The notes beneath the pieces were generated by a model. That model was given only the letters and a program-made list of their open reading frames with translations, was not told the origin of the DNA and did not search any database. From an uncultured Candidatus Peribacteria bacterium (GTDB lineage Bacteria; Patescibacteriota; Gracilibacteria; Peribacterales; Peribacteraceae), in contig CAYTNJ010000001.1 in NCBI GenBank assembly GCA_964439155.1, forward strand, positions 1 to 38,543: a stretch of 38,543 nucleotides of DNA. The letters run 5' to 3'. The position numbers and the translations under genes are program-made. This document shows positions 22,919 through 38,543 of this stretch, in pieces (within the stretch, counting starts at the first letter, position 1; each line of letters opens with the position of its first letter).

Positions 22919-23006
22919 ACTAATAGTCTGATAACGGGATCGAAACTTGGAAACGCGGCATTTCCCGTTTGGGATGTCGCTCATTCACCCACAGAAGGAG
23001 TGCGAA

Positions 23007-24107
23007 GTGACGAAGAGCGTTCTCTTATACGGAAACGACAAAGGGGCCATGACAGTTCTTCAGGCAGTGGAACAGGCGGCGCAAGCGACGGAATTTGGCG
23101 AGCTGAACCTGTACCGCATCCAGGGGGACAATGTGCCCGTGTCGGAGGAGGATTGGGGGCGCCTGGCGACAAGCGATGCTGTCATTTTCGGCATTTCCTC
23201 GGGAATGCCCGAAGCACTGCTCGCCTCCTGGGCATTGGGCAAAAACCCAGCCCTCGCCGGAAAAATCTTCTTCATGGAAGACTTTCCCGGGAGTTCCGGC
23301 ATCCACAGCGATGTGCTGAAGGGCATCGGCAAACAACTGCGGCTCTGCAGCATTCTGCCGCTGCCTCTCGATGCGCCGGAGCGCGATGTCTATGGTGCCG
23401 TCCACACTGTCGGCTGCCCGGATCATTGGGTGCCGTCCATGCGGCAGATCCAAGAGGGAACCACTGCGCGGCAGGGTGCGACACTGAGGAAACGGCGACG
23501 CGGAATGGAAGAGGCGGTGTCGCTTTCGCCCAACGAGCTGGTGGTCTACGTCACGGGATTCAAGGATCCGGTGATGGAACTCAAGGCTCTGCGGCATCTG
23601 CGGTCTCTCAGTTCCATGGAAGGACCGCCGTTCCTCGTCCACTTCCGCGCTCATCCTGGCGAGCGGGCCAATCCCAAACTGGCAGAGGCGATTCTGGAGC
23701 GCGATGCCCTGCTCCAGGGTGACTGGGAAATCGTGGTTCCTCCGCACGTCGATCAAAAGCTCGTGGAGCCATGGATGATCGGCGTCGCTGATGTCACGGT
23801 GGTCTTCTCGGGCTCAACCTCTCAATTCTGGGGGGCTGCCGCTCGCAAGAAAATGGTCTGCCCCAGGGAATTCGAACTGGGAAGGACCACCAAAACCTCG
23901 TCCTACGACTACGCGCTCGTGGAGCGTAGTGTTCACGTCGTCAAACGCGTGGACGAACTCGGCGGCGCGATCGGGGCGTTGGTCGTCAAGAACTCACCCG
24001 AGGCGGCCGCGCTGCTTGCCAAGCAGGAGAAAAATGCCTTTTCCTTCGGTGATGACGACGGGGTCAGTCACGGAAAAAATGTCCTGCAGCTCGTGAAAGA
24101 TTCATGA
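23007..24107 (+). CDS. Orphan protein with a two-Rossmann-half, GT-B / UDP-GlcNAc-2-epimerase-like pattern
   Basis: The track ORF starts at TTG 22947. GTG 23007 is in frame and preceded by AAGGAG (22995-23000, 6-nt spacer). The C-terminal half (FLVHFRAHPGE ... ADVTVVFSGSTSQFWGAAARKKMVC) resembles the HP...(D/S)SGG..E.. layout of GT-B/epimerase_2 proteins. This is a weak, by-eye call. Confidence 0.55.
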   Translation: MTKSVLLYGNDKGAMTVLQAVEQAAQATEFGELNLYRIQGDNVPVSEEDWGRLATSDAVIFGISSGMPEALLASWALGKNPALAGKIFFMEDFPGSSGIHSDVLKGIGKQLRLCSILPLPLDAPERDVYGAVHTVGCPDHWVPSMRQIQEGTTARQGATLRKRRRGMEEAVSLSPNELVVYVTGFKDPVMELKALRHLRSLSSMEGPPFLVHFRAHPGERANPKLAEAILERDALLQGDWEIVVPPHVDQKLVEPWMIGVADVTVVFSGSTSQFWGAAARKKMVCPREFELGRTTKTSSYDYALVERSVHVVKRVDELGGAIGALVVKNSPEAAALLAKQEKNAFSFGDDDGVSHGKNVLQLVKDS

Positions 24108-29935: not shown

Positions 29936-31063
29936 ATGGATCACACACAAAAACAGTCCGAACAAAGAACAGAAAATCCGATTTCGCAGGAGACTCTCAT
30001 AGAGAGCGTGAACAAGACAGTCCGAGGCCTGCAAACGCGCAATGCGGATGCCGCAGAACGGGTGATGGAATTATGTGCGCTTGTTGAAGATGTCACCGGG
30101 CGTGGCTTAGGGATGGATTTTTCCGAGAAACTTTATGGAAAAAATCATATGCAGGAACCGGGCGCGGAGCAGTCGCTTGCGAAAGTGCGCTACGAATTGA
30201 AGCAACTGTTGGCAAACGGCTTGGACGAAGAGAACCGGAGAATGGCCGACGCTTATGCGAACCTTGCGGAGGAAGAGGAGGAAACGCTTGTAGCAGAAGA
30301 AGAGGGCGACTTGCCGGTAAAACCTTTGCTGCCCAAACACAAAGAGGCAGTGGGCGAGCGGAGCGATGATATTTTTGAAATCGATGCGGGTGATGCGGCA
30401 TACACGATCAACGGCCACAGCCTTGAGCACGCCTACATGTATCCGAAGGGTGAAATCATGGCACCCCTCACGCAGCGCCAAATGGACTTTAAAATGTCGC
30501 AAATCAGGGCCGACAAACGCGACCGCGCGGTCAAGGAAGAGGAGGCCGTGCTAGATGCTCTTCGGCTGAATCCCTATAAGGAGAATCCTATAGAACCCGA
30601 TACAAGCTGGCTGAAGAAAGTGCTTTATCACCTATGGGACGAAATGAAATATTTCACCGATGAAACGGAGCATATGATGCAAAATCTGTACCTTGTTCCT
30701 GCAGTTGGAACCGATGCCGATCTTTATGGCGCGGATTGTCTTGCGGTGTACACCGATCCCGTCACCGGCAAGCACGTTGTTGTGACCATAGACATTACGG
30801 CGCAACCCGATGGCAAACTGGATGGTAAGGCCGATATCGTGGTTAGTCCGAATCATGCATTCGTTCATCATGATATTAAAAACAAGGCATTGGATGGCCT
30901 ATTCACCGATAAAGAAAGCCAGAAAATCAGTGCGCCAAAAGCCAAAGAGAGGCGCGCGCTGATCGGTAAAGCAATCGGCATCATCCTCAAAGAAAAGCTC
31001 AAGAAAATCGAACGCGGGCAGGTCGTGCATCATTTCCGCCTCCCGGGAAAAGGCAAAGCGTAA
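29936..31063 (+). CDS. Hypothetical protein (acidic helical N-half, beta-rich C-half)
   Basis: 375-aa ORF in a visibly lower-GC segment. No recognisable motif; HAFVHHD is the only His cluster. Confidence 0.6.
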   Translation: MDHTQKQSEQRTENPISQETLIESVNKTVRGLQTRNADAAERVMELCALVEDVTGRGLGMDFSEKLYGKNHMQEPGAEQSLAKVRYELKQLLANGLDEENRRMADAYANLAEEEEETLVAEEEGDLPVKPLLPKHKEAVGERSDDIFEIDAGDAAYTINGHSLEHAYMYPKGEIMAPLTQRQMDFKMSQIRADKRDRAVKEEEAVLDALRLNPYKENPIEPDTSWLKKVLYHLWDEMKYFTDETEHMMQNLYLVPAVGTDADLYGADCLAVYTDPVTGKHVVVTIDITAQPDGKLDGKADIVVSPNHAFVHHDIKNKALDGLFTDKESQKISAPKAKERRALIGKAIGIILKEKLKKIERGQVVHHFRLPGKGKA

Positions 31064-31064
31064 G

Positions 31065-31394
31065 CTAGGAAATGTTCAGGATATCGCTGACCAGCTGCTC
31101 CATTTTCTGCTTAAAGGGATTCCCGTCACCTCGTAACGCTCTGGAACTTTTTGCAAAAGCATCATCATCGGGACCAATGGCGCCATTCTCTACCAATGCA
31201 GCCACGGCGATGCGCACCGTCTCCGTTATCTGCTCCCGTGCACTCAGCCGCTGGAGCAAGATGTTTACCGAAATAGCGTGGGCTTTCCTTGCTGCAGGTT
31301 CAACGGTCTTGAGAGCAGCCAAAGCGGCATTCACACACAAGCTCTGTGCGAGAACTTCATAATCATCGCCGGATAAGACGTCTTTGGCAGACAT
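31065..31394 (-). CDS. Hypothetical small helical protein
   Basis: 109-aa ORF from an ATG. Its stop codon is separated by 1 nt from the convergent stop of the 375-aa gene. Confidence 0.5.
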   Translation of the reverse strand: MSAKDVLSGDDYEVLAQSLCVNAALAALKTVEPAARKAHAISVNILLQRLSAREQITETVRIAVAALVENGAIGPDDDAFAKSSRALRGDGNPFKQKMEQLVSDILNIS

Positions 31395-31472
31395 AGTCGG
31401 GCAACATAGAGGAAATGCGCCCTAGGACAAAGAAGATTTGACGCTTTGCCCGAAAGCCGCGAATCTCCTCCC

Positions 31473-31865
31473 ATGCCCCTGCAACGCCTCCGCGGCCGGA
31501 AAATATGCGATTTCGTGCTGCGTAAAGGCAAGGTATGGAAAGGCAAAACCCTGTCCGTGCGCTTTGTGCTGGGCGCACCAAGGCATCCGGCCGTGGACCC
31601 CGAAGCGCAGGCGCTGTATGTCGGCTGCTTCGCTTCGTCCAAACTGGATAAATCCGCCGTGCGCCGCAACCGCATGCGCCGCCGGTGCCGCGAGGCACTG
31701 CGCATCAGCCTGAACAAACACGGCGATTTGCCTGCCGCGCAGTTGTTGCTGTGTCCTAAAACGGCTAGTCTGGATGCTCCGTTCGAAGACATCCTCGGCG
31801 ATGTCTCGACGTTCCTCTCAACTCTCGCCCAATGCCCGAAGCCTCCAAAAAATCACGTTTCATAG
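31473..31865 (+). CDS. rnpA: Ribonuclease P protein component
   Basis: The track start at 31446 is TTG. ATG 31473 gives MPLQRLRGRKICDFVLRKG ... KSAVRRNRMRRRCREAL (RNR-motif). No rpmH upstream. Confidence 0.8.
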   Translation: MPLQRLRGRKICDFVLRKGKVWKGKTLSVRFVLGAPRHPAVDPEAQALYVGCFASSKLDKSAVRRNRMRRRCREALRISLNKHGDLPAAQLLLCPKTASLDAPFEDILGDVSTFLSTLAQCPKPPKNHVS

Positions 31866-33088
31866 ACATCGCGCTCATCTTCGCTGTCGTGTACCTGGTG
31901 TCCACGTTCGCCGTGCGCTGGTTCTTTCCCCCGGCCGATCCTCGCGGCAACGGCATTTTCCTGACTATGGAAGACGCCTCCGTGCGCGCCGGCTTGCACC
32001 CGGTTGCCGTGGTGGAAAACCTCACGGGCAAACCCCTGGTCATTCCCGCGCGCTGCCCCGCTCCTCCCCTCGATACCTTCCGCGTCACCTCTTCCGCGCA
32101 AGGCAGCGGCACCGTGGCTCCGCTTTCCAGCGACCAGCCGCCCGCCGTGGAGTGCCCCGGCGACATCACCGTCGAATCCGGTAAAAAAGGAAAAATCTCG
32201 CTCGCGCCCTGGAAGTATTCTCTCTTCGGGGAGAAGACCAAGTACGAAGTGCGCTTGCCGGCGGAAGTCGCGGCCAAAGCAGGTACCGGGTCCGTTACGG
32301 CCTCCGCGCGGTTCGACGTGTACGAGCCGGGCGCCGTCGTCAAACTGTACCGCGCCATCATTACCAAGCCCTTTCTCAACTTCCTCATCTTCATCGCCTC
32401 GGTGGCGCCGGGGCACAGCTTGGCCGTGGCCATCATCGTGCTCACCCTTTTGGTGAAACTCCTCCTCTTCTTCCCCACGCAAAAATCGCTTGAGGGACAA
32501 AAGAAGATGCAGTTGCTCCAGCCCAAGCTGGAAGAAGTACGCAAGAAATACGAAGGCGATGCCACGCGCCAGCAGCAGGAAACCATGAAGCTCTGGAAGG
32601 AGCACAAGATCAATCCCTTCCAATCCTGCCTGCCGCTTCTGCTGCAATTCCCCATCCTGATCGGTCTCTTCCACGTCATCCGCGACGGCTCCACCTTGGC
32701 GCTCTCGCGCGATCTCATCTATCCGATCTACCAAAATCTCGATTGGTCCTTCGGCACCGGGTTTTTCGGTCTCGATTTAACGCTTCCGAACTATTACTTC
32801 TTTCCGCCCCTGCTCGTCATTCTGCAATTCCTGCAGATGCGCCTTTCCTTCGCCATCTCCGATCGCAAAAAGGCGAAGCAGATCGAAAAGATCGAACACG
32901 GCGGCGTGCAGACGCCCGAAAAAACCGCGCAAGACATCCAACAAAAAATGATGATGTACGTGCTGCCGTTCATGATCGGCTTCTTCGCCATCCAGTTCCC
33001 AGTGGCGGTGTCCCTCTACTGGGGCATCTCGACACTCTTCGGCATCGGGCAACAATTGATCGTCAACAGGGAACACCTCCGCGTCTAA
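31832..33088 (+). CDS. yidC: Membrane protein insertase YidC
   Basis: LVKLLLFFPTQKSLEGQKKMQLLQPKLEEVRKKYEGD...MKLWKEHKINPFQSCLPLLLQFPILIGLF. Overlaps rnpA by 34 nt. Confidence 0.88.
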   Translation: MPEASKKSRFIDIALIFAVVYLVSTFAVRWFFPPADPRGNGIFLTMEDASVRAGLHPVAVVENLTGKPLVIPARCPAPPLDTFRVTSSAQGSGTVAPLSSDQPPAVECPGDITVESGKKGKISLAPWKYSLFGEKTKYEVRLPAEVAAKAGTGSVTASARFDVYEPGAVVKLYRAIITKPFLNFLIFIASVAPGHSLAVAIIVLTLLVKLLLFFPTQKSLEGQKKMQLLQPKLEEVRKKYEGDATRQQQETMKLWKEHKINPFQSCLPLLLQFPILIGLFHVIRDGSTLALSRDLIYPIYQNLDWSFGTGFFGLDLTLPNYYFFPPLLVILQFLQMRLSFAISDRKKAKQIEKIEHGGVQTPEKTAQDIQQKMMMYVLPFMIGFFAIQFPVAVSLYWGISTLFGIGQQLIVNREHLRV

Positions 33089-33116
33089 ATCCGCCCCGAC
33101 CAAGGGCCTACGTGTT

Positions 33117-33139
33117 CCCTCTCCCCTCGCGGGAGAGGG
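33117..33139 (+). terminator. Hairpin after yidC followed by a G-rich tract
   Basis: CCCTCTCCC-CTCGC-GGGAGAGGG, then CTAGGGTGAGGGGGC. No U-run. Confidence 0.4.
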
Positions 33140-33323
33140 CTAGGGTGAGGGGGCAGGAGAAAACTTCCACGCACAGTCCCCACGAGTGGCTTCCCCATAA
33201 AAAGCCCCTTTAAACACACCAAAACCCCAATTAAACCCCAAACCAGGATACTTGCTAAAAATAAGATAAGTTTTATGATAGTACTTATCCTCTCCAGTAG
33301 AGGTCAACAACTGGGTCTTTGCA

Positions 33324-34085
33324 ATGAACGGCTGCAACCAAGAAAGCGAGAAAGACATGAAGAACAACGAAGAAGTGAATCAAGAGCGGTGGGTCGGCAT
33401 CGGATTCTTCACGATCATCGCCCTGATCGTGATCCTGGCCATCGCCCAGAACGCCCCGTCCGCCGAAGACAAGCCCGCTACGAAAGTCACGGACGACTTC
33501 AAGCAATTGGACTCGGACAAGTGGCACGTCCGTAGCCCCAACGAAGCCCTCGTCGGAGTTAAAGACGGCGAGTTGATCTTAATCAACCGCGGCTACGTCT
33601 TCTCCAAAAGGCAAGTCGTGAAGAAGGTCACCATCACGCTGGACTGGGCATGGAAGGACCGTACAAAGAACGATCAAAAGTTCTTGTATGCGGATCACCT
33701 TCTAGTGCTCCTGAGGTCGACAGGTGAGGTGAATAAGGCCCGCTCTTACGAGAGCCTGGACGGGCTCAGAGTAAGGATCATTGCAGGGACAGGCGCCGTC
33801 CGCTTGGAGAAGGCCAATGGGGAAAAAGAGGGGGACATTCTTAAGGAAGAATTGTTGCCCAAGGAAGCCGGACAACCAGCCCTGGCGTCCGATACCTTTC
33901 ACAACATCGTCGTATCAGATGATGGCACGGAAGTCATCGTCAGCGTCAACGGCAAGGAGGCCCTCAAGCACAAGTATAAAGGAGAATTCAAAGGAAAACT
34001 TCTCGGCATCGCCAACCGGGAAAGCGTCGGCTTCCCGCACGAAAGCAGGATTAAGAACATCGCCCTGGAATTCGTGGACAAGTGA
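33324..34085 (+). CDS. Membrane-anchored protein with a LamG/DUF1080-like jelly-roll pattern
   Basis: TM helix WVGIGFFTIIALIVILAI, then FKQLDSDKWHVRSPNEALVGVKDGELILINRGYVFSK. Alternative ATG at 33357. Lower-GC segment. The fold call is weak. Confidence 0.5.
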   Translation: MNGCNQESEKDMKNNEEVNQERWVGIGFFTIIALIVILAIAQNAPSAEDKPATKVTDDFKQLDSDKWHVRSPNEALVGVKDGELILINRGYVFSKRQVVKKVTITLDWAWKDRTKNDQKFLYADHLLVLLRSTGEVNKARSYESLDGLRVRIIAGTGAVRLEKANGEKEGDILKEELLPKEAGQPALASDTFHNIVVSDDGTEVIVSVNGKEALKHKYKGEFKGKLLGIANRESVGFPHESRIKNIALEFVDK

Positions 34086-34118
34086 TCGTATGAACAAGCA
34101 GCCGTAGCAAAGAACCCG

Positions 34119-34147
34119 CCGGAACGACTCGTTGTCGTTCCGGTTTT
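34119..34147 (+). terminator. Intrinsic terminator between convergent genes
   Basis: CCGGAACGAC-TCGTT-GTCGTTCCGG followed by TTTT. Confidence 0.65.
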
Positions 34148-34157
34148 AGCGTGACTC

Positions 34158-35228
34158 CTAGGCAACCGTCACCGCCTCACACAAATACACATCCTGAATC
34201 GCGTGCAGCAACTTCACCCCTTCTTCCCGCGATTTCTGGAAGGCTTTGCGTCCGGCGATGAGCCCGCTGCCGCCCGCGCGTTTGTTGATGACGGCCGCGC
34301 GCACCGCGTCCTCCAAGTCGTTCTTGCCCGAGGCGCCGCCGGAGCTGATCAGGCCGATGCGTCCCATGTAGCAGTTGGCCACTTGATAGCGCGCCAGGTC
34401 GATCGGATGCATGCTCGAGAGTTTCGTGTAAATGCGCTCGTCGGTTTTGCCGTATTGGGAGCCTTTGATATTGAGTGCGGTGAAGCCGCCATTAGTCTCG
34501 GGCAGTTTCTGCTTGATGATGTCCGCCTGGATCGTCACGCCAAGGTGATTCGCCTGTCCCGTCAGGTCCGCGGCGGCATGATAATCCTTGCCCCCCTTCT
34601 TGAAGCCGGGATTGCGCAGGTAGCACCACAGCACGGTGAACAGTCCCAGCCTGTGGGCCTCCGCGAAGGCCGCACTAACTTCCTGTATCTGCCGCGTCGA
34701 TTCGGGTGAGCCGAAATAAATCGTGGCGCCAACTCCGAGCGCTCCCATGTCTTTCGCTTGGCGCACGGAGCCGAAGAAAATTTGATCGAACTTGTTCGGG
34801 TACGTCAGTAATTCGTTGTGATTCAACTTCACGATGAACGGGATTTTGTGCGCATATTTCCGCGACACCATGCCAAGCACTCCCACCGTCGAAGCAACCG
34901 CGTTGCAGCCGCCTTCCATCGCCAACTTCACGATGTTCTCGGGATCAAAGTATGCGATATTCGGCGCGAACGATGCGCCTGCCGAGTGCTCGATGCCCTG
35001 GTCCACGGGACGGATGGAAAGATATCCCGTGCCGCCCAGCCTCCCGTGCCCGTACAGCGTCTTCAAATGCCTCTGCACGGCGTAAGACCTGTCGGAGTCG
35101 GCGAACAGCGTGGCGGCCGCCTTGGGGCCCGGCACGTGCAGCTGCTGCTTGGGGATCGTCTTGCACGCATGCGAAAGCAGGCTCGCCCCTTTCGGTCCGA
35201 GCAGGCGTTTGATATCGGCGTAGGTCAT
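34158..35228 (-). CDS. fbaB: Class I fructose-bisphosphate aldolase, DhnA/FbaB type
   Basis: The track start at 35255 is TTG. ATG 35228 gives [11 protein letters not shown]. End-to-end resemblance to E. coli FbaB as I recall it: [86 protein letters not shown]. Confidence 0.92.
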
Positions 35229-35353
35229 GAAGCGAGGGGAAGGGGCGGGTCTCAACCTAGCAAAACGCCCAGCCTCTGACCAGTTTTAGCGCTTGTCACG
35301 ATGCGCTCGTCCCGTAGTGAGCTCGTCGAACTATCGAACTGCATGACGAATGA

Positions 35354-35422
35354 GCCCGATCCCCCTTCTCCGATAGTGCGTGTAAACGTGGGCACGGCAG
35401 GAGAGAAGCGTGGGGATCGGGC
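35354..35422. other. Long imperfect hairpin (candidate structured RNA element)
   Basis: Perfect 11-bp outer stem GCCCGATCCCC (35354-35364) / GGGGATCGGGC (35412-35422). Inner CTTCTCC / GGAGAGAAG pairing with a bulge. Apical GCGT-GTAA-ACGT, which is a GNRA loop only on the + strand. Confidence 0.5.
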
Positions 35423-35492
35423 GGCTAAATAGGAAAAAAGGTGTGACCTCGAACAACGTCGGAGTTGCTCGAAGCGGTCTGGTGCAAAAGTG

Positions 35493-35540
35493 CCGCCGGC
35501 GGATTTACGCCCGCCGGCGGAGATGGATCACCTCCCTTCT
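35493..35540. other. GC hairpin plus 16S rRNA 3'-tail look-alike (on + strand); equivalently a 15-nt super-SD (on - strand)
   Basis: CCGCCGGCGG-ATTTACGC-CCGCCGGCGG (35493-35520), then AGAT, then GGATCACCTCCCTTCT (35525-35540). The widespread 16S 3' end is GGATCACCTCCTTTCT, so 15/16 match. Confidence 0.6.
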
Positions 35541-35697
35541 ATCCTAAGGAGTCATAACTATGGAAAAACATTTGCATGTATGGACCTCCTTCGAAAACAA
35601 AGGATTGTGATAGTCCTGGCAACATCTTCGATGCTGCAGCAGGCCGCTTGGAGCAATAAATCAAAGAGCGGGAAATAGATCTGCGATGTCTAAAGTG

Positions 35698-35729
35698 TTC
35701 CAGCTGGCGCGCGTTCGCGCCAGCTGGAA
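35698..35729 (-). terminator. Strong hairpin 17 nt downstream of the 67-aa ORF
   Basis: TTCCAGCTGGCGCG-CGTT-CGCGCCAGCTGGAA (14 bp). No clear U-run on either strand. Confidence 0.5.
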
Positions 35730-35745
35730 TGAGAGTCCTGAGATG

Positions 35746-35949
35746 CTACTCGTCTTCGTCGCAGTCGTAATTGACGCTGATGAGTGGCTTTGCGGTGGGT
35801 TGGAGCTCTTGATCCTCTGCCCTGGGATCAAAATATCCTCCTTGAATCACTTGTTTCAGCTTACTCTTTCCGGCACGCCGATCAGACCGGGTTTCCTGTC
35901 TCTTGAGCCGGCTGACGCGCTCGCGCTTGTTAGAGTTGAGCTTGGACAT
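35746..35949 (-). CDS. 67-aa small protein, basic N-half and acidic C-tail, unknown function
   Basis: GGAGGG-7nt-ATG at 35949. MSKLNSNKRERVSRLKRQETRSDRRAGKSKLKQVIQGGYFDPRAEDQELQPTAKPLISVNYDCDEDE. GC3 about 42/67 by hand count. Hairpin downstream. Confidence 0.5.
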   Translation of the reverse strand: MSKLNSNKRERVSRLKRQETRSDRRAGKSKLKQVIQGGYFDPRAEDQELQPTAKPLISVNYDCDEDE

Positions 35950-36108
35950 GAAATTTCCCTCCGTGCTAACGGACAATCCTGACGTCTTTTCTCCCTGCAC
36001 ATACAGGAACAACGCAGGTCCATTTCTCCTGAGCGATGCTGTGAAAAAACAACGGAAAACGATCTGCTTTCGAAAGGAAGAATGGTAGCTTCCAAATTCT
36101 TAAGGGAC

Positions 36109-36169
36109 GGACGCCGAGACTCTTCGTGAATCTCGGCGTCCTCTATGGTCAACCCCTCGTCATGAGGGG
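36109..36169 (-). terminator. Two hairpins downstream of the 42-aa ORF
   Basis: GGACGCCGAGA-11nt-TCTCGGCGTCC (36109-36141) and CCCCTC-GTCAT-GAGGGG (36153-36169). Confidence 0.4.
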
Positions 36170-36185
36170 TGCTAAAAGGAAGGCA

Positions 36186-36314
36186 TTAGACATGCGCTCG
36201 GCGGTGAATCTTGCGCGGGTTCCAGGTGGTTATCTTCATCCGAAGCGGCAGTGCGACGTTGCTCAAAATGTGCGTCGGGAAGGAAGAGACGTGGTACGGG
36301 AAGTGCCGATACAT
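36186..36314 (-). CDS. 42-aa His/Pro/Arg-rich micro-protein, unknown function
   Basis: AAGGAG-6nt-ATG at 36314. MYRHFPYHVSSFPTHILSNVALPLRMKITTWNPRKIHRRAHV. GC3 is 33/42 by hand count, against 37/71 for the overlapping + strand ORF. Confidence 0.4.
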   Translation of the reverse strand: MYRHFPYHVSSFPTHILSNVALPLRMKITTWNPRKIHRRAHV

Positions 36315-36460
36315 GTTTTGCTCCTTCTTACGATGGGGCTGACCGACTACCGTCGCTATCGTAACCAACGTGGTTACGGACGAAGGCAGGTCGTTTTCTG
36401 CGTGCCATGAACGTAAGCGTGGTTCATGGAGGCTGTGCTGTGAAGGTCCGAAAGAAGCAA

Positions 36461-36490
36461 AAAGGCCCCGATCTTGCGAGAGGGGCCTTT
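36461..36490 (-). terminator. Rho-independent terminator reading on the minus strand
   Basis: AAAGGCCCC-12nt-GGGGCCTTT. On the minus strand it is followed by TTTTTGCTTCTTT. Confidence 0.6.
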
Positions 36491-36691
36491 AGAGTTCGAG
36501 TTTCTGCGTTACATCACTCTTGCCCCTTTGTAAGGTGCTTCGTAAGGCGGGCCGAAATGACAAACGACAGGTGCATTGCGGCCAGGGTATCATCGGTTTT
36601 CTCACTGTCAACAGCGAAATTTCGATGCGATGGAGCTAAAAGAAAAGACGACTGTGGGCGACCGAACGGCTCTTCGCTATGCTCTTTGACG

Positions 36692-38179
36692 ATGCCGCTG
36701 AAGCTCTATAACTCCTTGGCCAAGCAGGAAGAAGAGTTCCGCCCCTTAAACAGGAGCGTCGTGAGCATGTATACCTGCGGCCCCACCGTGTACGGCCGCC
36801 CGCATATCGCCAACTATTCGGCGTTCCTCATGGCCGATCTTTTGCGAAGGTGGTTGCAGTTTGGGCACGGGCTAAAGGTGATCCACGCCAAGAACATCAC
36901 CGACGTGGGGCACTTGGTGCGCGACGCCGATACGGGGGAGGACAAAATCGAGAAGCAGGCGCGCGAAGAATTCGGCGAAGTCACCCATGATTCCGTCATC
37001 GGCATCGCGCGCAAATACGAGGCGATGTACCTGGAAGATGAGAAGGTATTAAACATGCTCGAGCCCGACTTCCGCCCGCGGGCCACCGAGTACATCGACC
37101 AGATGAAAGAGATGATCGAAAGTCTTCTCCAAAACGGTCACGCATACGTCACCGACGACGGCATCTATTTCGACGTCACTTCTCCCACGCTCACGCCCTA
37201 CGGAACACTCTCCGGAAACACGCTCGAAAACCTCGCCGCCGGCTCGCGCGTGGAGGTGAACGAGGCAAAGAAACACCCCGCCGATTTCGCCCTCTGGAAA
37301 TTCTGCGTCGGCCCCAATGAACACCATGCTCTAAGGTGGCCTTCCCCTCAGGTCGGCGGGAGCGGGTTTCCTAACCCGCGGCTCTTGGATCCCCTACCCG
37401 ACGGCTTCCCCGGTTGGCACATCGAATGCTCCGCGATGAGCAGGTCGCTACTCGGGGACTCCATCGACATTCACACCGGCGGCGAGGACAACATTTTCCC
37501 GCATCACGAATGCGAAATCGCGCAGAGCGAATCGGTCACCGGAAAGCCGTTCGTGCGAACGTGGCTGCACAAGAGGCGCATCGATCTCGCCGGTGAAAAG
37601 ATGTCAAAGAGTCTTGGCAACGTGTTAACTATTATTGACATTTCGGAGAAGGGCTATTCCCCCCTCGATTTGCGCTACTACTTCAGCTCCGTGCACTATC
37701 GCACCAACTTAAAATTCAGTTGGGAGGGTTTGGAGGCCGCACGCAAGGCGAGGCGCACGATCATGGAGTGGATGGAGGAAATTTCCGCCATGCAGGCCGC
37801 TGCCGAAGGGAAGCAAACGGAGGTCAACGCCGCGCACGAATGGAAGCAGATGTTCGCTTCGGCGATGGACGCCGATCTCAACGTTTCCCAAGCTCTCGCA
37901 GCCGTCTTCGGATGCGCCTCTTGGTCGCGCGTCGCGCCGTTGAATGACGAAGCACTTTCCGTCGTGCGCGAGTTCATCACGCTGATACGGCACACGTTCG
38001 GTTGCTTCACATTCGAGACGAAAAATATTCCGGAAAACGTACAACGATTGGTTGATGAAAGAGCTGCCGCCCGCGCCGGAAAAAATTTCGCGGAGTCCGA
38101 CAGATTGCGTGACGCGATCGACGCCCTCGGCTACGAAGTGCGCGACGGAAAAGAAGGACAAATCGTGAAGAAAAAATGA
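36692..38179 (+). CDS. cysS: Cysteine--tRNA ligase
   Basis: ATG 36692 gives MPLKLYNSLAKQEEEFRP, CGPTVYGRPHIANY (HIGH-region variant), WHIECSAM, FPHHECEIAQ, KMSKSLGN. The 95 codons from 36407 in the track ORF are hairpin-rich non-coding leader. Confidence 0.92.
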   Translation: MPLKLYNSLAKQEEEFRPLNRSVVSMYTCGPTVYGRPHIANYSAFLMADLLRRWLQFGHGLKVIHAKNITDVGHLVRDADTGEDKIEKQAREEFGEVTHDSVIGIARKYEAMYLEDEKVLNMLEPDFRPRATEYIDQMKEMIESLLQNGHAYVTDDGIYFDVTSPTLTPYGTLSGNTLENLAAGSRVEVNEAKKHPADFALWKFCVGPNEHHALRWPSPQVGGSGFPNPRLLDPLPDGFPGWHIECSAMSRSLLGDSIDIHTGGEDNIFPHHECEIAQSESVTGKPFVRTWLHKRRIDLAGEKMSKSLGNVLTIIDISEKGYSPLDLRYYFSSVHYRTNLKFSWEGLEAARKARRTIMEWMEEISAMQAAAEGKQTEVNAAHEWKQMFASAMDADLNVSQALAAVFGCASWSRVAPLNDEALSVVREFITLIRHTFGCFTFETKNIPENVQRLVDERAAARAGKNFAESDRLRDAIDALGYEVRDGKEGQIVKKK

Positions 38180-38246
38180 CCCGGCTACGTCCGCTCAGGC
38201 GGACTACGCCGCGGTCACCTCGGCGTAATCGACAGATGAAGCCGGG
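38180..38246 (+). other. Branched stem-loop element immediately after the cysS stop
   Basis: Outer CCCGGCT / AGCCGGG encloses GTCCGC-TCAG-GCGGAC (38189-38204) and TACGCCG-9nt-CGGCGTA (38205-38227). Confidence 0.35.
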
Positions 38247-38543
38247 TAGCCCAACAAAACCACCCCATTTGCAGCCCTTTTGAGCGTTTTTTTCGATCTT
38301 TCCGCTATATCCACTCATCCCAAAATCCAAACGCGTCCTGGCGCATTTATTGAAGGTTTCTTAGTCGGCGAAAAGAATGCGGAGAACTATGGTGGGGGAA
38401 TGCGCGAGGCAGGGGAGTGGTGACAGCGTTATTATTACGTAAAATAAAAAATATAAAGAATTGCTTATATGTATTGCATGTTCTGTATTTTAAAAATAAT
38501 CGTATGCGCATCTTCTGAAATACCTCGTGATTCACGTACTAAC

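Follow-up and report, generated by a model that had tools for sequence, protein, structure and literature searches.

The 1.4 kb that lie between the conserved promoters of fbaB and cysS in this uncultured Candidatus Peribacteria bacterium are best read as the species-specific fill of a small-gene hotspot, made up of four independent units on the minus strand. We give this reading a probability of about 0.5. Unit 0 would run from a promoter of the sigma-70 type through an ORF of 20 codons, or an RNA of ~125 nt, to a canonical intrinsic terminator. Units 1 and 2 would be leadered mRNAs, one encoding a 42-aa protein (p42) and the other a 67-aa protein (p67) that combines a basic helix with an acidic tail, and unit 3 would consist of an 84-nt palindromic hairpin with its terminator. 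Three additional hairpins would protect the fbaB promoter against read-through. The products of the p67 and p42 units may be small regulators or nucleic-acid binders. The observations comprise the anatomy of the spacer, its contrast in Shine-Dalgarno (SD) sites with the surrounding genes, the conservation of the promoters on both flanks, the absence of homologues and the occupancy of the same place by csrA in relatives. In what follows, the window is the whole stretch of DNA that was analysed (38,543 nt) and the spacer is its part from 35229 to 36691.

Anatomy of the fbaB-cysS spacer

The features of the spacer and of its flanks are, in order of position:

34158-35228, minus strand: fbaB (NCBIfam class I FBA, 620 bits)
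within 35229-35253, minus strand: CU-rich 5′UTR of fbaB, roughly 20-25 nt
35254-35262, minus strand: fbaB promoter TGCTAGGTT, ~26 nt upstream of the fbaB ATG; left-hand edge of the extra DNA
35259-35283, minus strand: weak fbaB-proximal hairpin with a U-tract
35354-35422, minus strand: 69-nt hairpin (inverted repeat) with outer stem GCCCGATCCCC/GGGGATCGGGC and inner stem CTTCTCC/GGAGAAG; z -4.9 for 35345-35480
35434-35474, minus strand: second hairpin (fold), then a CCTTTTTTCC tract
35485-35520, minus strand: predicted terminator of the 84-nt-hairpin unit, stem CCGCCGGCGG/CCGCCGGCGG then CACTTTTG (inverted repeat, fold)
35528-35611, either strand: 84-nt imperfect palindrome, one long hairpin; z -4.5 (minus) and -3.6 (plus)
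35539-35577, minus strand: 12-aa micro-ORF inside the palindrome
35560-35610, plus strand: 16-aa micro-ORF inside the palindrome
35698-35729, minus strand: perfect 14-bp hairpin, 16 nt past the p67 stop; z -6.25, U-tract absent
35746-35949, minus strand: p67, 67-codon candidate gene, basic N-terminal helix and acidic tail
35957-35962, minus strand: SD of p67, GGAGGG, 7 nt before ATG 35949
36109-36141 and 36153-36169, minus strand: two hairpins 3′ of p42; z -6.1, U-tract absent
36186-36314, minus strand: p42, 42-codon candidate gene MYRHFPYHVSSFPTHILSNVALPLRMKITTWNPRKIHRRAHV
36321-36326, minus strand: SD of p42, AAGGAG, 6 nt before ATG 36314
36451-36490, minus strand: predicted intrinsic terminator of unit 0, stem AAAGGCCCC/GGGGCCTTT then TTTTTGCTTCTTT
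36514-36576, minus strand: 20-codon ORF MHLSFVISARLTKHLTKGQE, predicted 5′ end of unit 0
36584-36611, minus strand: predicted promoter of unit 0, TTGACA (36611-36606), 16 nt, TACCCT (36589-36584), 7 nt to ATG 36576
36678-36683, plus strand: -10 box TATGCT of cysS, 8 nt before ATG 36692; predicted leaderless cysS promoter and right-hand edge of the extra DNA
36692-38179, plus strand: cysS (TIGR00435)

The relatives of CysS are Peribacteria without exception, at 66-68% identity for the best full-length sequences and 71% for two partial ones. Nearly every one of 23 relatives keeps the -10 box of fbaB followed by the CU-rich leader, and a TATCCT/TATGCT box stands 7-8 nt ahead of the cysS start in 21 of 34. 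Between these edges no ORF exceeds 100 aa, the longest one in 35229-36691 having 98 aa, and GC is 0.51-0.55 vs 0.583 in the whole window; the preliminary description had been right on both points. It had also listed seven strong hairpins (35354-35422, 35449-35472, 35493-35520, 35698-35729, 36109-36141, 36153-36169 and 36461-36490), all of which were recovered, five of them as inverted repeats and the others in folds.

Against dinucleotide shuffles the spacer hairpins, which include perfect stems of 10-14 bp, stand out by their far greater stability (z -4.5 to -6.3), and across 120-nt windows the mean z is -1.05 in the spacer vs -0.11 elsewhere in the window (Mann-Whitney p = 7e-5). The U-tract directly after the stem that characterizes an intrinsic terminator is present on the minus strand at 36461-36490, 35493-35520 and 35449-35472 and absent at 35698-35729 and 36109-36141. 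Host genes are followed by hairpins of the kind seen behind p67 and p42. We infer that the hairpins of the spacer terminate transcription.

The purine arms of the 84-nt palindrome are the SDs at 35546-35551 (plus) and 35585-35591 (minus), so that two of the four SDs of the spacer (35546 plus, 35591 minus) form the two arms of one hairpin. Its 3′ arm is largely overlapped by AAGGGAGGTGATCC (35525-35538, minus). The idea that 35525-35540 is a piece of the 16S 3′ end, or imitates it, was rejected, since the stretch has no rRNA homology and differs from the tail reported for the lineage, GAACACTTCCTTA.

Exact look-ups of the spacer ORFs returned one additional contig only, the near-identical strain contig L081, and conservation of the spacer content is thus seen at strain level only. 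Of the 6 SNPs in L081, 4 fall in p42, the highest density. The 12-aa micro-ORF at 35539-35577 has Tyr8 replaced by Asp there.

The promoter of unit 0 is the sole match to TTGnnn-N16-18-TAnnnT on either strand of the spacer, with an estimated chance expectation of ~0.03. The ORF behind it may be either a leaderless micro-ORF or the body of a ~125-nt sRNA; its codon log-likelihood is 0.26 per codon at a length too small to judge, and the RNA (36450-36578, minus) folds at z -2.7.

p42 and p67 are built as SD-led modules, in which an SD at 6-7 nt, the ATG and the ORF are followed by a strong hairpin 15-16 nt past the stop, and both show GC position periodicity, GC2 being low. The GC3 of p42 (0.77) is host-gene-like, and its frame is unbroken in L081, with two synonymous and two conservative changes, while the antisense ORF acquires a stop. 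p67 (GC1/2/3 = 0.59/0.38/0.63) is unchanged in L081 and has already been called as a gene on its source contig in the protein collection. A promoter scan of units 1 (p42) and 2 (p67) gave no convincing candidate. As read from their sequences, the 12-, 16-, 20-, 42- and 67-aa peptides have no hydrophobic helix of the type I toxin-antitoxin kind. A 90-codon ATC-initiated frame after GGAGGTGATCC was rejected for its lack of codon periodicity.

Several properties count against the gene model. Both frames are homologue-less: in collections of 5.8e9 and 1.84e9 proteins the sole match of p67 was p67 itself, metagenome and viral-contig scans gave no relative of it, and the search of protein collections with p42 gave no match. 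Their codon log-likelihoods (0.12 and 0.04 per codon for p67 and p42) lie between those of host genes (0.34) and wrong frames (-0.20). The AF2 model of p67, a helix at 3-22 with the rest coil, is of low confidence (pLDDT 66), U-tracts are missing after both p67 and p42, and the SNPs are concentrated in p42.

At gathering score, Rfam 15 finds two tRNAs only in the whole window, both outside the spacer; within the spacer, matches up to E = 5 number three, all unrelated and at the level of chance, the best at 24 bits vs a gathering score of 75. Sequence searches against Pfam, NCBIfam, PHROGs, PADLOC and PDB gave no match, and neither did blastn against phage and plasmid DNA. Comparison of the spacer with the loci of 80 relatives by blastn and nhmmer yielded chance matches only, and tblastn of 14 spacer ORFs against relatives gave nothing below E = 0.05. 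On its lower GC, atypical codon usage and missing homologues a foreign origin of the spacer is possible and unproven.

The preliminary description had not recognised the locus as any described system, and with Rfam, Pfam, NCBIfam, PHROGs and PADLOC all blank we agree; no known RNA was identified in the spacer. Its view that this is not ordinary spacer DNA is also upheld: the spacer contains separate modules of SD, ORF and hairpin and one or more units that run from promoter to terminator. Its suggestion of one dedicated locus gives way to small units that are independent of one another and are flanked on both sides by promoters which relatives conserve.

SD sites and the initiation mode of the lineage

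The four SD-start pairs of the spacer stand as first described, and so does the contrast with host genes: AGGAG or GGAGG at -4 to -18 occurs in 0 of the 29 long window genes, and gatC, which starts at ATG 29854, has no SD. The further claim that the spacer holds nearly all canonical SDs of the window fits SDs with a correctly spaced start outside long genes, which are concentrated there, and not bare SD-like hexamers, of which the spacer has only 4 of 26 (AAGGAG) and 5 of 98 (GGAGG). Counting (AGGAG or GGAGG)-N4-9-ATG on both strands, 4 of 18 distinct starts lie in the spacer, which is 3.8% of the sequence; with overlapping motif matches the count is 5 of 20 (binomial p about 8e-4). Nearly all pairs outside it fall within long genes, and GTG 23007 was correctly singled out as the other clear SD.

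Pairing energies with the 16S tail agree with these counts. Upstream of long genes they average -1.7 kcal/mol, with none at or below -7, vs -3.8 for random ATGs; the upstream regions of host genes avoid SD-like pairing. The four spacer SDs reach -8.0 to -12.9 kcal/mol, and when the variant tail of Peribacteria takes the place of the canonical one, the pairing of p42 weakens from -8.0 to -6.0 and that of p67 from -10.6 to -7.3. For the host's own tail there are two alternatives, CACUUCCUUA or CACCUCCUUA; neither the window nor the fetched loci of relatives contain an rRNA gene. Both p67 and p42 have a 16S-complementary SD 5-10 nt before the start.

How, then, do the other genes begin? A TANNNT box ending 7-12 nt before the ATG is found in 14 of 30 window genes; among background ATGs the share is 3.8% (p about 1e-12). 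Because the -10 box sits at this distance, the mRNAs of about half of the window genes, cysS included, are probably leaderless. In relatives, a Pribnow-type box precedes 17.6% of starts vs 4.8% of the background, and an SD occurs in 3.0% of 165 genes, which is the background level. The leaderless-rich 'group C' of GeneMarkS-2 is defined by a Pribnow box ~10 nt before starts and the absence of an RBS motif (PMC6028130), and the window, with its 14 of 30 genes, resembles it. Ca. Peribacter riflensis is listed as SD-scarce, with 7% SD genes and the 16S tail GAACACTTCCTTA (PMC10783764). With class iv, 'SD-scarce lacking conserved CCUCC', to which that species belongs, as with group C, the window shares the pre-start Pribnow box and a background SD frequency. 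As in leaderless-rich, SD-scarce genomes generally, canonical SDs are rare here and limited to a few leadered genes.

The different initiation regime that had been proposed is thus real, the surrounding genes being leaderless or SD-less, and it is a known property of the lineage (PMC10783764) instead of a peculiarity of this locus. The cause of the SD contrast of the spacer is largely known. p42 and p67 would be translated through ordinary SD/anti-SD pairing, because their mRNAs are predicted to have leaders, and they would look exceptional because most genes of this genome start on leaderless or SD-less mRNAs. The window offers a clean case, with numbers, of a CPR bacterium in which leaderless or SD-less initiation predominates. 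SD-trained gene callers would mis-start most genes in such genomes and may over-call or under-call small ORFs.

The spacer in related Peribacteria

By manual count, csrA lies in the fbaB-cysS spacer or just 3′ of cysS in 16 of 34 relatives. These genes were identified by Pfam (E 4e-26), and approximately 15 of 18 copies, again counted manually, have a strong SD. The spacers of relatives also carry further SD-led small ORFs, and they range from ~0.1 to 3 kb with variable content. A search of the syntenic spacers in 23 relatives gave no homologue of p67 or p42, and csrA was not found in the 38.5-kb window by tblastn or HMM. A degraded csrA was rejected by running the HMM over the six-frame translation. 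Pairwise comparison of p67 and p42 with the small basic ORFs of relatives' spacers revealed compositional similarity only.

The window thus shares with the csrA locus of relatives the position between fbaB and cysS and genes of 40-90 codons behind strong AGGAGG boxes. It differs in having neither csrA nor any CsrA-like frame, and its ORFs are encoded on the other strand and show no sequence relationship to those of relatives. Because relatives' spacers hold SD-led csrA paralogues and other small genes, the fbaB-cysS spacer appears, on comparative sequence grounds, to be a variable small-gene hotspot across the lineage. Lineage-specific small proteins and candidate sRNAs of bacterial intergenic regions offer the same picture of short SD-led ORFs, terminator hairpins, lack of homologues and a variable neighbourhood, and the window differs from them just by its background of SD-less genes.

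Taken alone, the locus gives a CPR genome two more orphan candidates for small proteins, together with one or two candidate sRNAs. In Peribacteria more widely, the rare canonical SDs are clustered at csrA and adjacent small genes in one syntenic spacer. If SD boxes remain under a mutated anti-SD, then we can ask a question that has become testable: Are they ribosome-binding or regulator-binding sites?

Alternative explanations

Functionless DNA, decaying or recently acquired, could keep expression-like signals by descent, as the remnant either of an insertion or of the ancestral csrA region. The lack of homologues over the whole 1.46 kb, a GC 3-6 points below the window average, the atypical codon usage, the variable spacer content (~0.1 to 3 kb) among relatives and the clustering of SNPs in p42 would all suit such an origin. 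As leftovers, however, one would hardly expect three SD-ATG-ORF-hairpin modules and a promoter-to-terminator unit that are all intact; by our estimate a random SD-ATG pair gives an open frame of at least 67 codons ~6% of the time. The perfect 10-14-bp stems, the ORFs intact in the second strain, and the absence of csrA traces and of mobile-element, phage or plasmid similarity also argue against decay, which we regard as a tentative alternative of perhaps one chance in a few.

CsrA binds GGA. The spacer could be a non-coding RNA locus, whose SD boxes, which contain GGA, would not be ribosome-binding sites and would instead bind proteins or shape the structure of sRNAs that are CsrA targets or sponges. 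Relatives keep csrA in this spacer or just after cysS (16 of 34), and it is almost the sole SD-bearing gene of a lineage that is poor in SDs and has no CCUCC in its 16S tail. Consistent with such a locus, the spacer is hairpin-dense, two of its SDs are hairpin arms, its ORFs are homologue-less with atypical codon usage, and ANGGA is enriched 2.6-fold on the plus strand. On the minus strand, however, GGA density equals the window average. Nearly all GGA sites are base-paired in minimum-energy folds, with none in a hairpin loop, and on this placement a CsrB-like sponge was rejected. The sponge sRNAs CsrB and RsmY/Z resemble the spacer in being hairpin-dense, GGA-containing, non-coding by homology and associated with a csrA locus, but the spacer has no repeated array of stem-loops with GGA in the loop. 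It also matches no Rfam family at gathering score, none of its matches up to E = 5 is to a Csr/Rsm family, and csrA itself is absent from the 38.5-kb window. We consider a CsrA-linked RNA locus unlikely. A wider version, in which AGGAGG in Peribacteria, with no SD on ordinary genes, would survive mainly as a CsrA operator in place of a ribosome-binding site and the spacer would be a Csr hub that has here lost csrA, leaving units 0-3 as GGA-box targets or decoys of CsrA, seems to us quite improbable.

A long regulatory leader of fbaB, in which tandem terminators and hairpins that sequester SDs would act with a leader peptide of 12 codons (35539-35577, minus) to control read-through into fbaB, deserves very little credence. 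SD, mini-ORF, second SD-like box, terminator, further hairpins and fbaB do follow one another on the same strand, and the 392 nt from 35229 to 35620 (minus) fold at z -5.3. However, the hairpins upstream of the fbaB promoter are not an fbaB leader, because that promoter and its short CU-rich leader, at 35229-35262 in the window, are conserved in nearly all of the 23 relatives, and these relatives lack the upstream structure. No alternative antiterminator structure was found, and the 12-codon peptide carries the change Tyr8 to Asp in L081. A leader or attenuator of the trp/erm type was rejected on the ground of fbaB's own conserved promoter (35254-35262).

A chromosomal replication origin, suggested by the lack of ORFs, the vicinity of rnpA and yidC (the latter 2 kb away) and a cumulative GC skew that drops across the window and levels off near 34-36 kb, close to its local minimum, is hardly credible and was rejected by the DnaA-box scan, which with at most one mismatch found 0 boxes in the spacer and 3, the chance level, in the whole window, while clustered repeated short boxes and an AT-rich unwinding element are absent (minimum GC about 0.43-0.48) and no dnaA gene was noted nearby.

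Finally, the best Rfam match in the spacer, at the 84-nt hairpin, is the Caulobacter sRNA CC2171 (RF01867), which likewise pairs a 5′ GGAGGUGAUCCA box with a GC-rich terminator hairpin behind it. The spacer scores 24 bits vs the gathering score of 75, with ~105 model positions absent, and the resemblance is limited to the SD-like box and the terminator.

Composition of the spacer and initiation signals of the host

The divergent genes fbaB (34158-35228, minus strand) and cysS (36692-38179, plus strand), both identified by NCBIfam and Pfam, enclose a spacer at 35229-36691. The preliminary description of this spacer as lacking ORFs above 100 aa, low in GC and rich in hairpins is borne out: its longest ORF has at most 98 aa, its GC is 0.51-0.55 versus 0.583 for the window, and all seven hairpins were recovered, being far stabler than dinucleotide shuffles (z -4.5 to -6.3). 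Folding in 120-nt windows gave a mean z of -1.05 in the region versus -0.11 in the rest of the window (p = 7e-5). The four Shine-Dalgarno (SD)-start pairs are likewise present as described; the region holds 4 of the window's 18 (AGGAG or GGAGG)-N4-9-ATG starts in 3.8% of the length, and SD-ATG pairs elsewhere are nearly all internal to long genes.

All relatives found by CysS matches are Candidatus Peribacteria (Peregrinibacteria, CPR). Searches of 185,579 species genomes and 5.8 billion proteins gave a top full-length identity of only 66-68%, with two partial matches at up to 71%, and therefore no close relative is public. The host genes do lack SDs (0 of 29 long genes in the window), and pairing with the 16S tail upstream of them is weaker than at random ATGs (-1.7 vs -3.8 kcal/mol). 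In 14 of 30 window genes a TANNNT box ends 7-12 nt upstream of the first ATG, whereas background ATGs have one in 3.8% of cases (p about 1e-12); examples are the -10 boxes of ATG 14549, 18327, 19508, 20547, 24269, 29936 and 36692. Such a box just before the ATG is a leaderless-mRNA signature, the 'group C' of GeneMarkS-2 (PMC6028130). Together with SD avoidance, the boxes suggest that the mRNAs of this CPR genome are for the most part leaderless or nearly so.

Among the loci of 34 related Peribacteria, SD frequency is 3.0% (background 3.3%), and the -10 box precedes 17.6% of starts (background 4.8%). A published survey placed Ca. Peribacter riflensis, where 7% of genes have an SD, in the class 'SD-scarce, lacking conserved CCUCC', and reported the Peribacteria 16S tail as GAACACTTCCTTA (PMC10783764). 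Spacer and host genes thus do differ in SD use as proposed, but this is a lineage trait. The window's only long gene with a plausible SD (AAGGAG-6-GTG 23007) lies at 22947-24107, and its 366-aa product belongs to no Pfam family.

Four units on the minus strand

Four short units, all on the minus strand, and the hairpins beyond them were delimited as follows.

Features of the spacer and its flanking promoters
Upstream of ATG 36576, minus: unit 0 promoter, TTGACA-16-TACCCT, 7 nt from the ATG; the region's only TTGnnn-N16-18-TAnnnT match
From ATG 36576, minus: unit 0 body, 20-codon ORF
36461-36490, minus: unit 0 terminator, textbook, with U-tract
36186-36314, minus: unit 1, AAGGAG-6-ATG 36314, 42-codon ORF (p42), then two hairpins
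35746-35949, minus: unit 2, GGAGGG-7-ATG 35949, 67-codon ORF (p67), then a hairpin
16 nt past the p67 stop codon, minus: unit 2 hairpin, perfect 14-bp stem
35528-35611, minus: unit 3, one long imperfect palindrome
35493-35520, minus: terminator after unit 3
35449-35472: hairpin with U-tract before the fbaB promoter
35354-35422: further hairpin before the fbaB promoter
35269-35283: weak hairpin before the fbaB promoter
35254-35262, minus: fbaB promoter TGCTAGGTT, then GAGACCCGCCCCTTCCCCTCGCTTC-ATG
8 nt upstream of the cysS ATG, plus: cysS -10 box TATGCT

The predicted unit 0 transcript is about 125 nt long. Unit 3 folds on either strand (z -4.5 and -3.6), and the SDs at 35546 (plus strand) and 35591 (minus strand) form its purine-rich arms; the box AAGGGAGGTGATCC lies mostly over its 3' arm. 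Host genes are followed by hairpins like those of the spacer, with the U-tract present or absent. The 11-nt GGAGGTGATCC at 35525-35535 (minus strand) complements the canonical bacterial 16S 3' tail perfectly, where chance would give about 0.02 such matches in the window. It fails to match the variant tail that Peribacteria are reported to have, and it is base-paired within the 84-nt hairpin of unit 3.

In favour of p67 and p42 as genes, both have ideal SD spacing, a strong hairpin shortly past the ORF end and coding-like GC1/2/3 (0.59/0.38/0.63 and 0.49/0.42/0.77, respectively), and p67 had been called as a gene in the contig's own annotation. A 910-nt Logan contig of SRR13287447 from a near-identical strain (L081:1-910) corresponds to window 35461-36370 with six SNPs. 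None falls in p67 or in hairpin stems, four lie in the 129-nt p42 ORF, which keeps its frame with two synonymous and two conservative changes, and an antisense 94-aa ORF acquires a stop codon. Against their being genes, codon usage is intermediate between wrong frames and host genes, and homologue searches returned only p67 itself (5.8e9 and 1.84e9 proteins) and nothing for p42; Pfam, NCBIfam, PHROGs, PADLOC, PDB, phage, plasmid and viral-contig searches gave zero matches. The AF2 model of p67 has only a basic N-terminal helix (pLDDT 66).

The same spacer in related Peribacteria

Conservation in relatives, to which the preliminary description had looked, is confined to the flanking promoters; between them the spacer has no DNA- or protein-level likeness to relatives' spacers, whose length varies from about 0.1 to 3 kb. 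A TATCCT or TATGCT box lies 7-8 nt upstream of cysS in 21 of 34 relatives, and nearly all 23 relatives carry upstream of fbaB a TG-n-TAnnnT box, after which comes a leader rich in pyrimidines and about 25 nt long (CACTTTCCCC...). This CU-rich 5'UTR (window 35229-35262; L001-L034) often contains CACTTTCC or CACTTCC, in the same sense as the Peribacteria tail CACUUCCUUA and not complementary to it; the motif may be a non-SD translation signal. Short tandem repeats occur just 5' of cysS in two relatives: 'tacacttctatactt' units with repeated TATACT boxes (L007:5955-6000) and 'cacctaaaac' units (L025:1250-1296).

In 16 of 34 relatives csrA, often as several paralogues, lies within the spacer or directly past cysS (Pfam CsrA, E 4e-26), and about 15 of 18 csrA starts have a strong AGGAGG-type box. 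CsrA-like products account for 19 of 112 SD-ATG-ORF combinations (>=40 aa) in these loci, the rest being mostly internal methionines of long genes. Other spacers hold unrelated small ORFs or one of two further families. The window itself has no csrA and no CsrA-like frame. The spacer is thus a conserved hotspot of SD-led small genes with variable content.

Several Peribacteria have two to four tandem csrA paralogues adjoining cysS (L008:2736-3869, L022:4842-5690, L027:5114-5905, L028:4883-5814, L001:5243-5871); one in L022 is a fusion of two domains, and some divergent copies are found by HMM alone. The two further families, which recur in the spacer of relatives without csrA there, are a helical one of about 60 aa ('PTPAFxRLA...') and one of about 67 aa ('MANKKKLSGVEQQFHQDKTGRW...'); Pfam has no match for either (L013:5457-5672, L015:5323-5499, L019:5697-5900, L002:5440-5589; L020:5496-5693, L023:2384-2587, L026:5481-5681).

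SD scarcity and a variant anti-SD in Peribacteria are already published, and variable spacers are known to hold orphan small ORFs and candidate sRNAs. We infer a lineage-level pattern that may be new, in which the few canonical SDs cluster within one syntenic spacer, at csrA and the genes beside it; it rests mostly on loci outside the window.

Readings of the locus

In the most likely reading (probability about 0.5) the locus consists of small, mutually independent units specific to this species. Two orphan small proteins would be SD-translated from leadered mRNAs, one promoter-to-terminator unit would give a micro-ORF or sRNA, one element would consist of a hairpin and a terminator, and the extra hairpins would set the units apart from fbaB. 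That the spacer is acquired or decaying DNA without function is a less likely alternative. A CsrA-related non-coding RNA locus is improbable, weakened by the placement of GGA motifs in stems and by the lack of any array of repeated stem-loops. An fbaB attenuator was rejected as very improbable: the fbaB promoter and its short leader are conserved across relatives, and therefore the hairpins upstream are not an fbaB leader. Least credible is an oriC, as DnaA boxes are absent. Cumulative GC skew (30000-38543) falls across the window and is flat near 34-36 kb, close to yidC; with no DnaA boxes nearby, this flattening, seen in one window, is probably a gene-strand effect.
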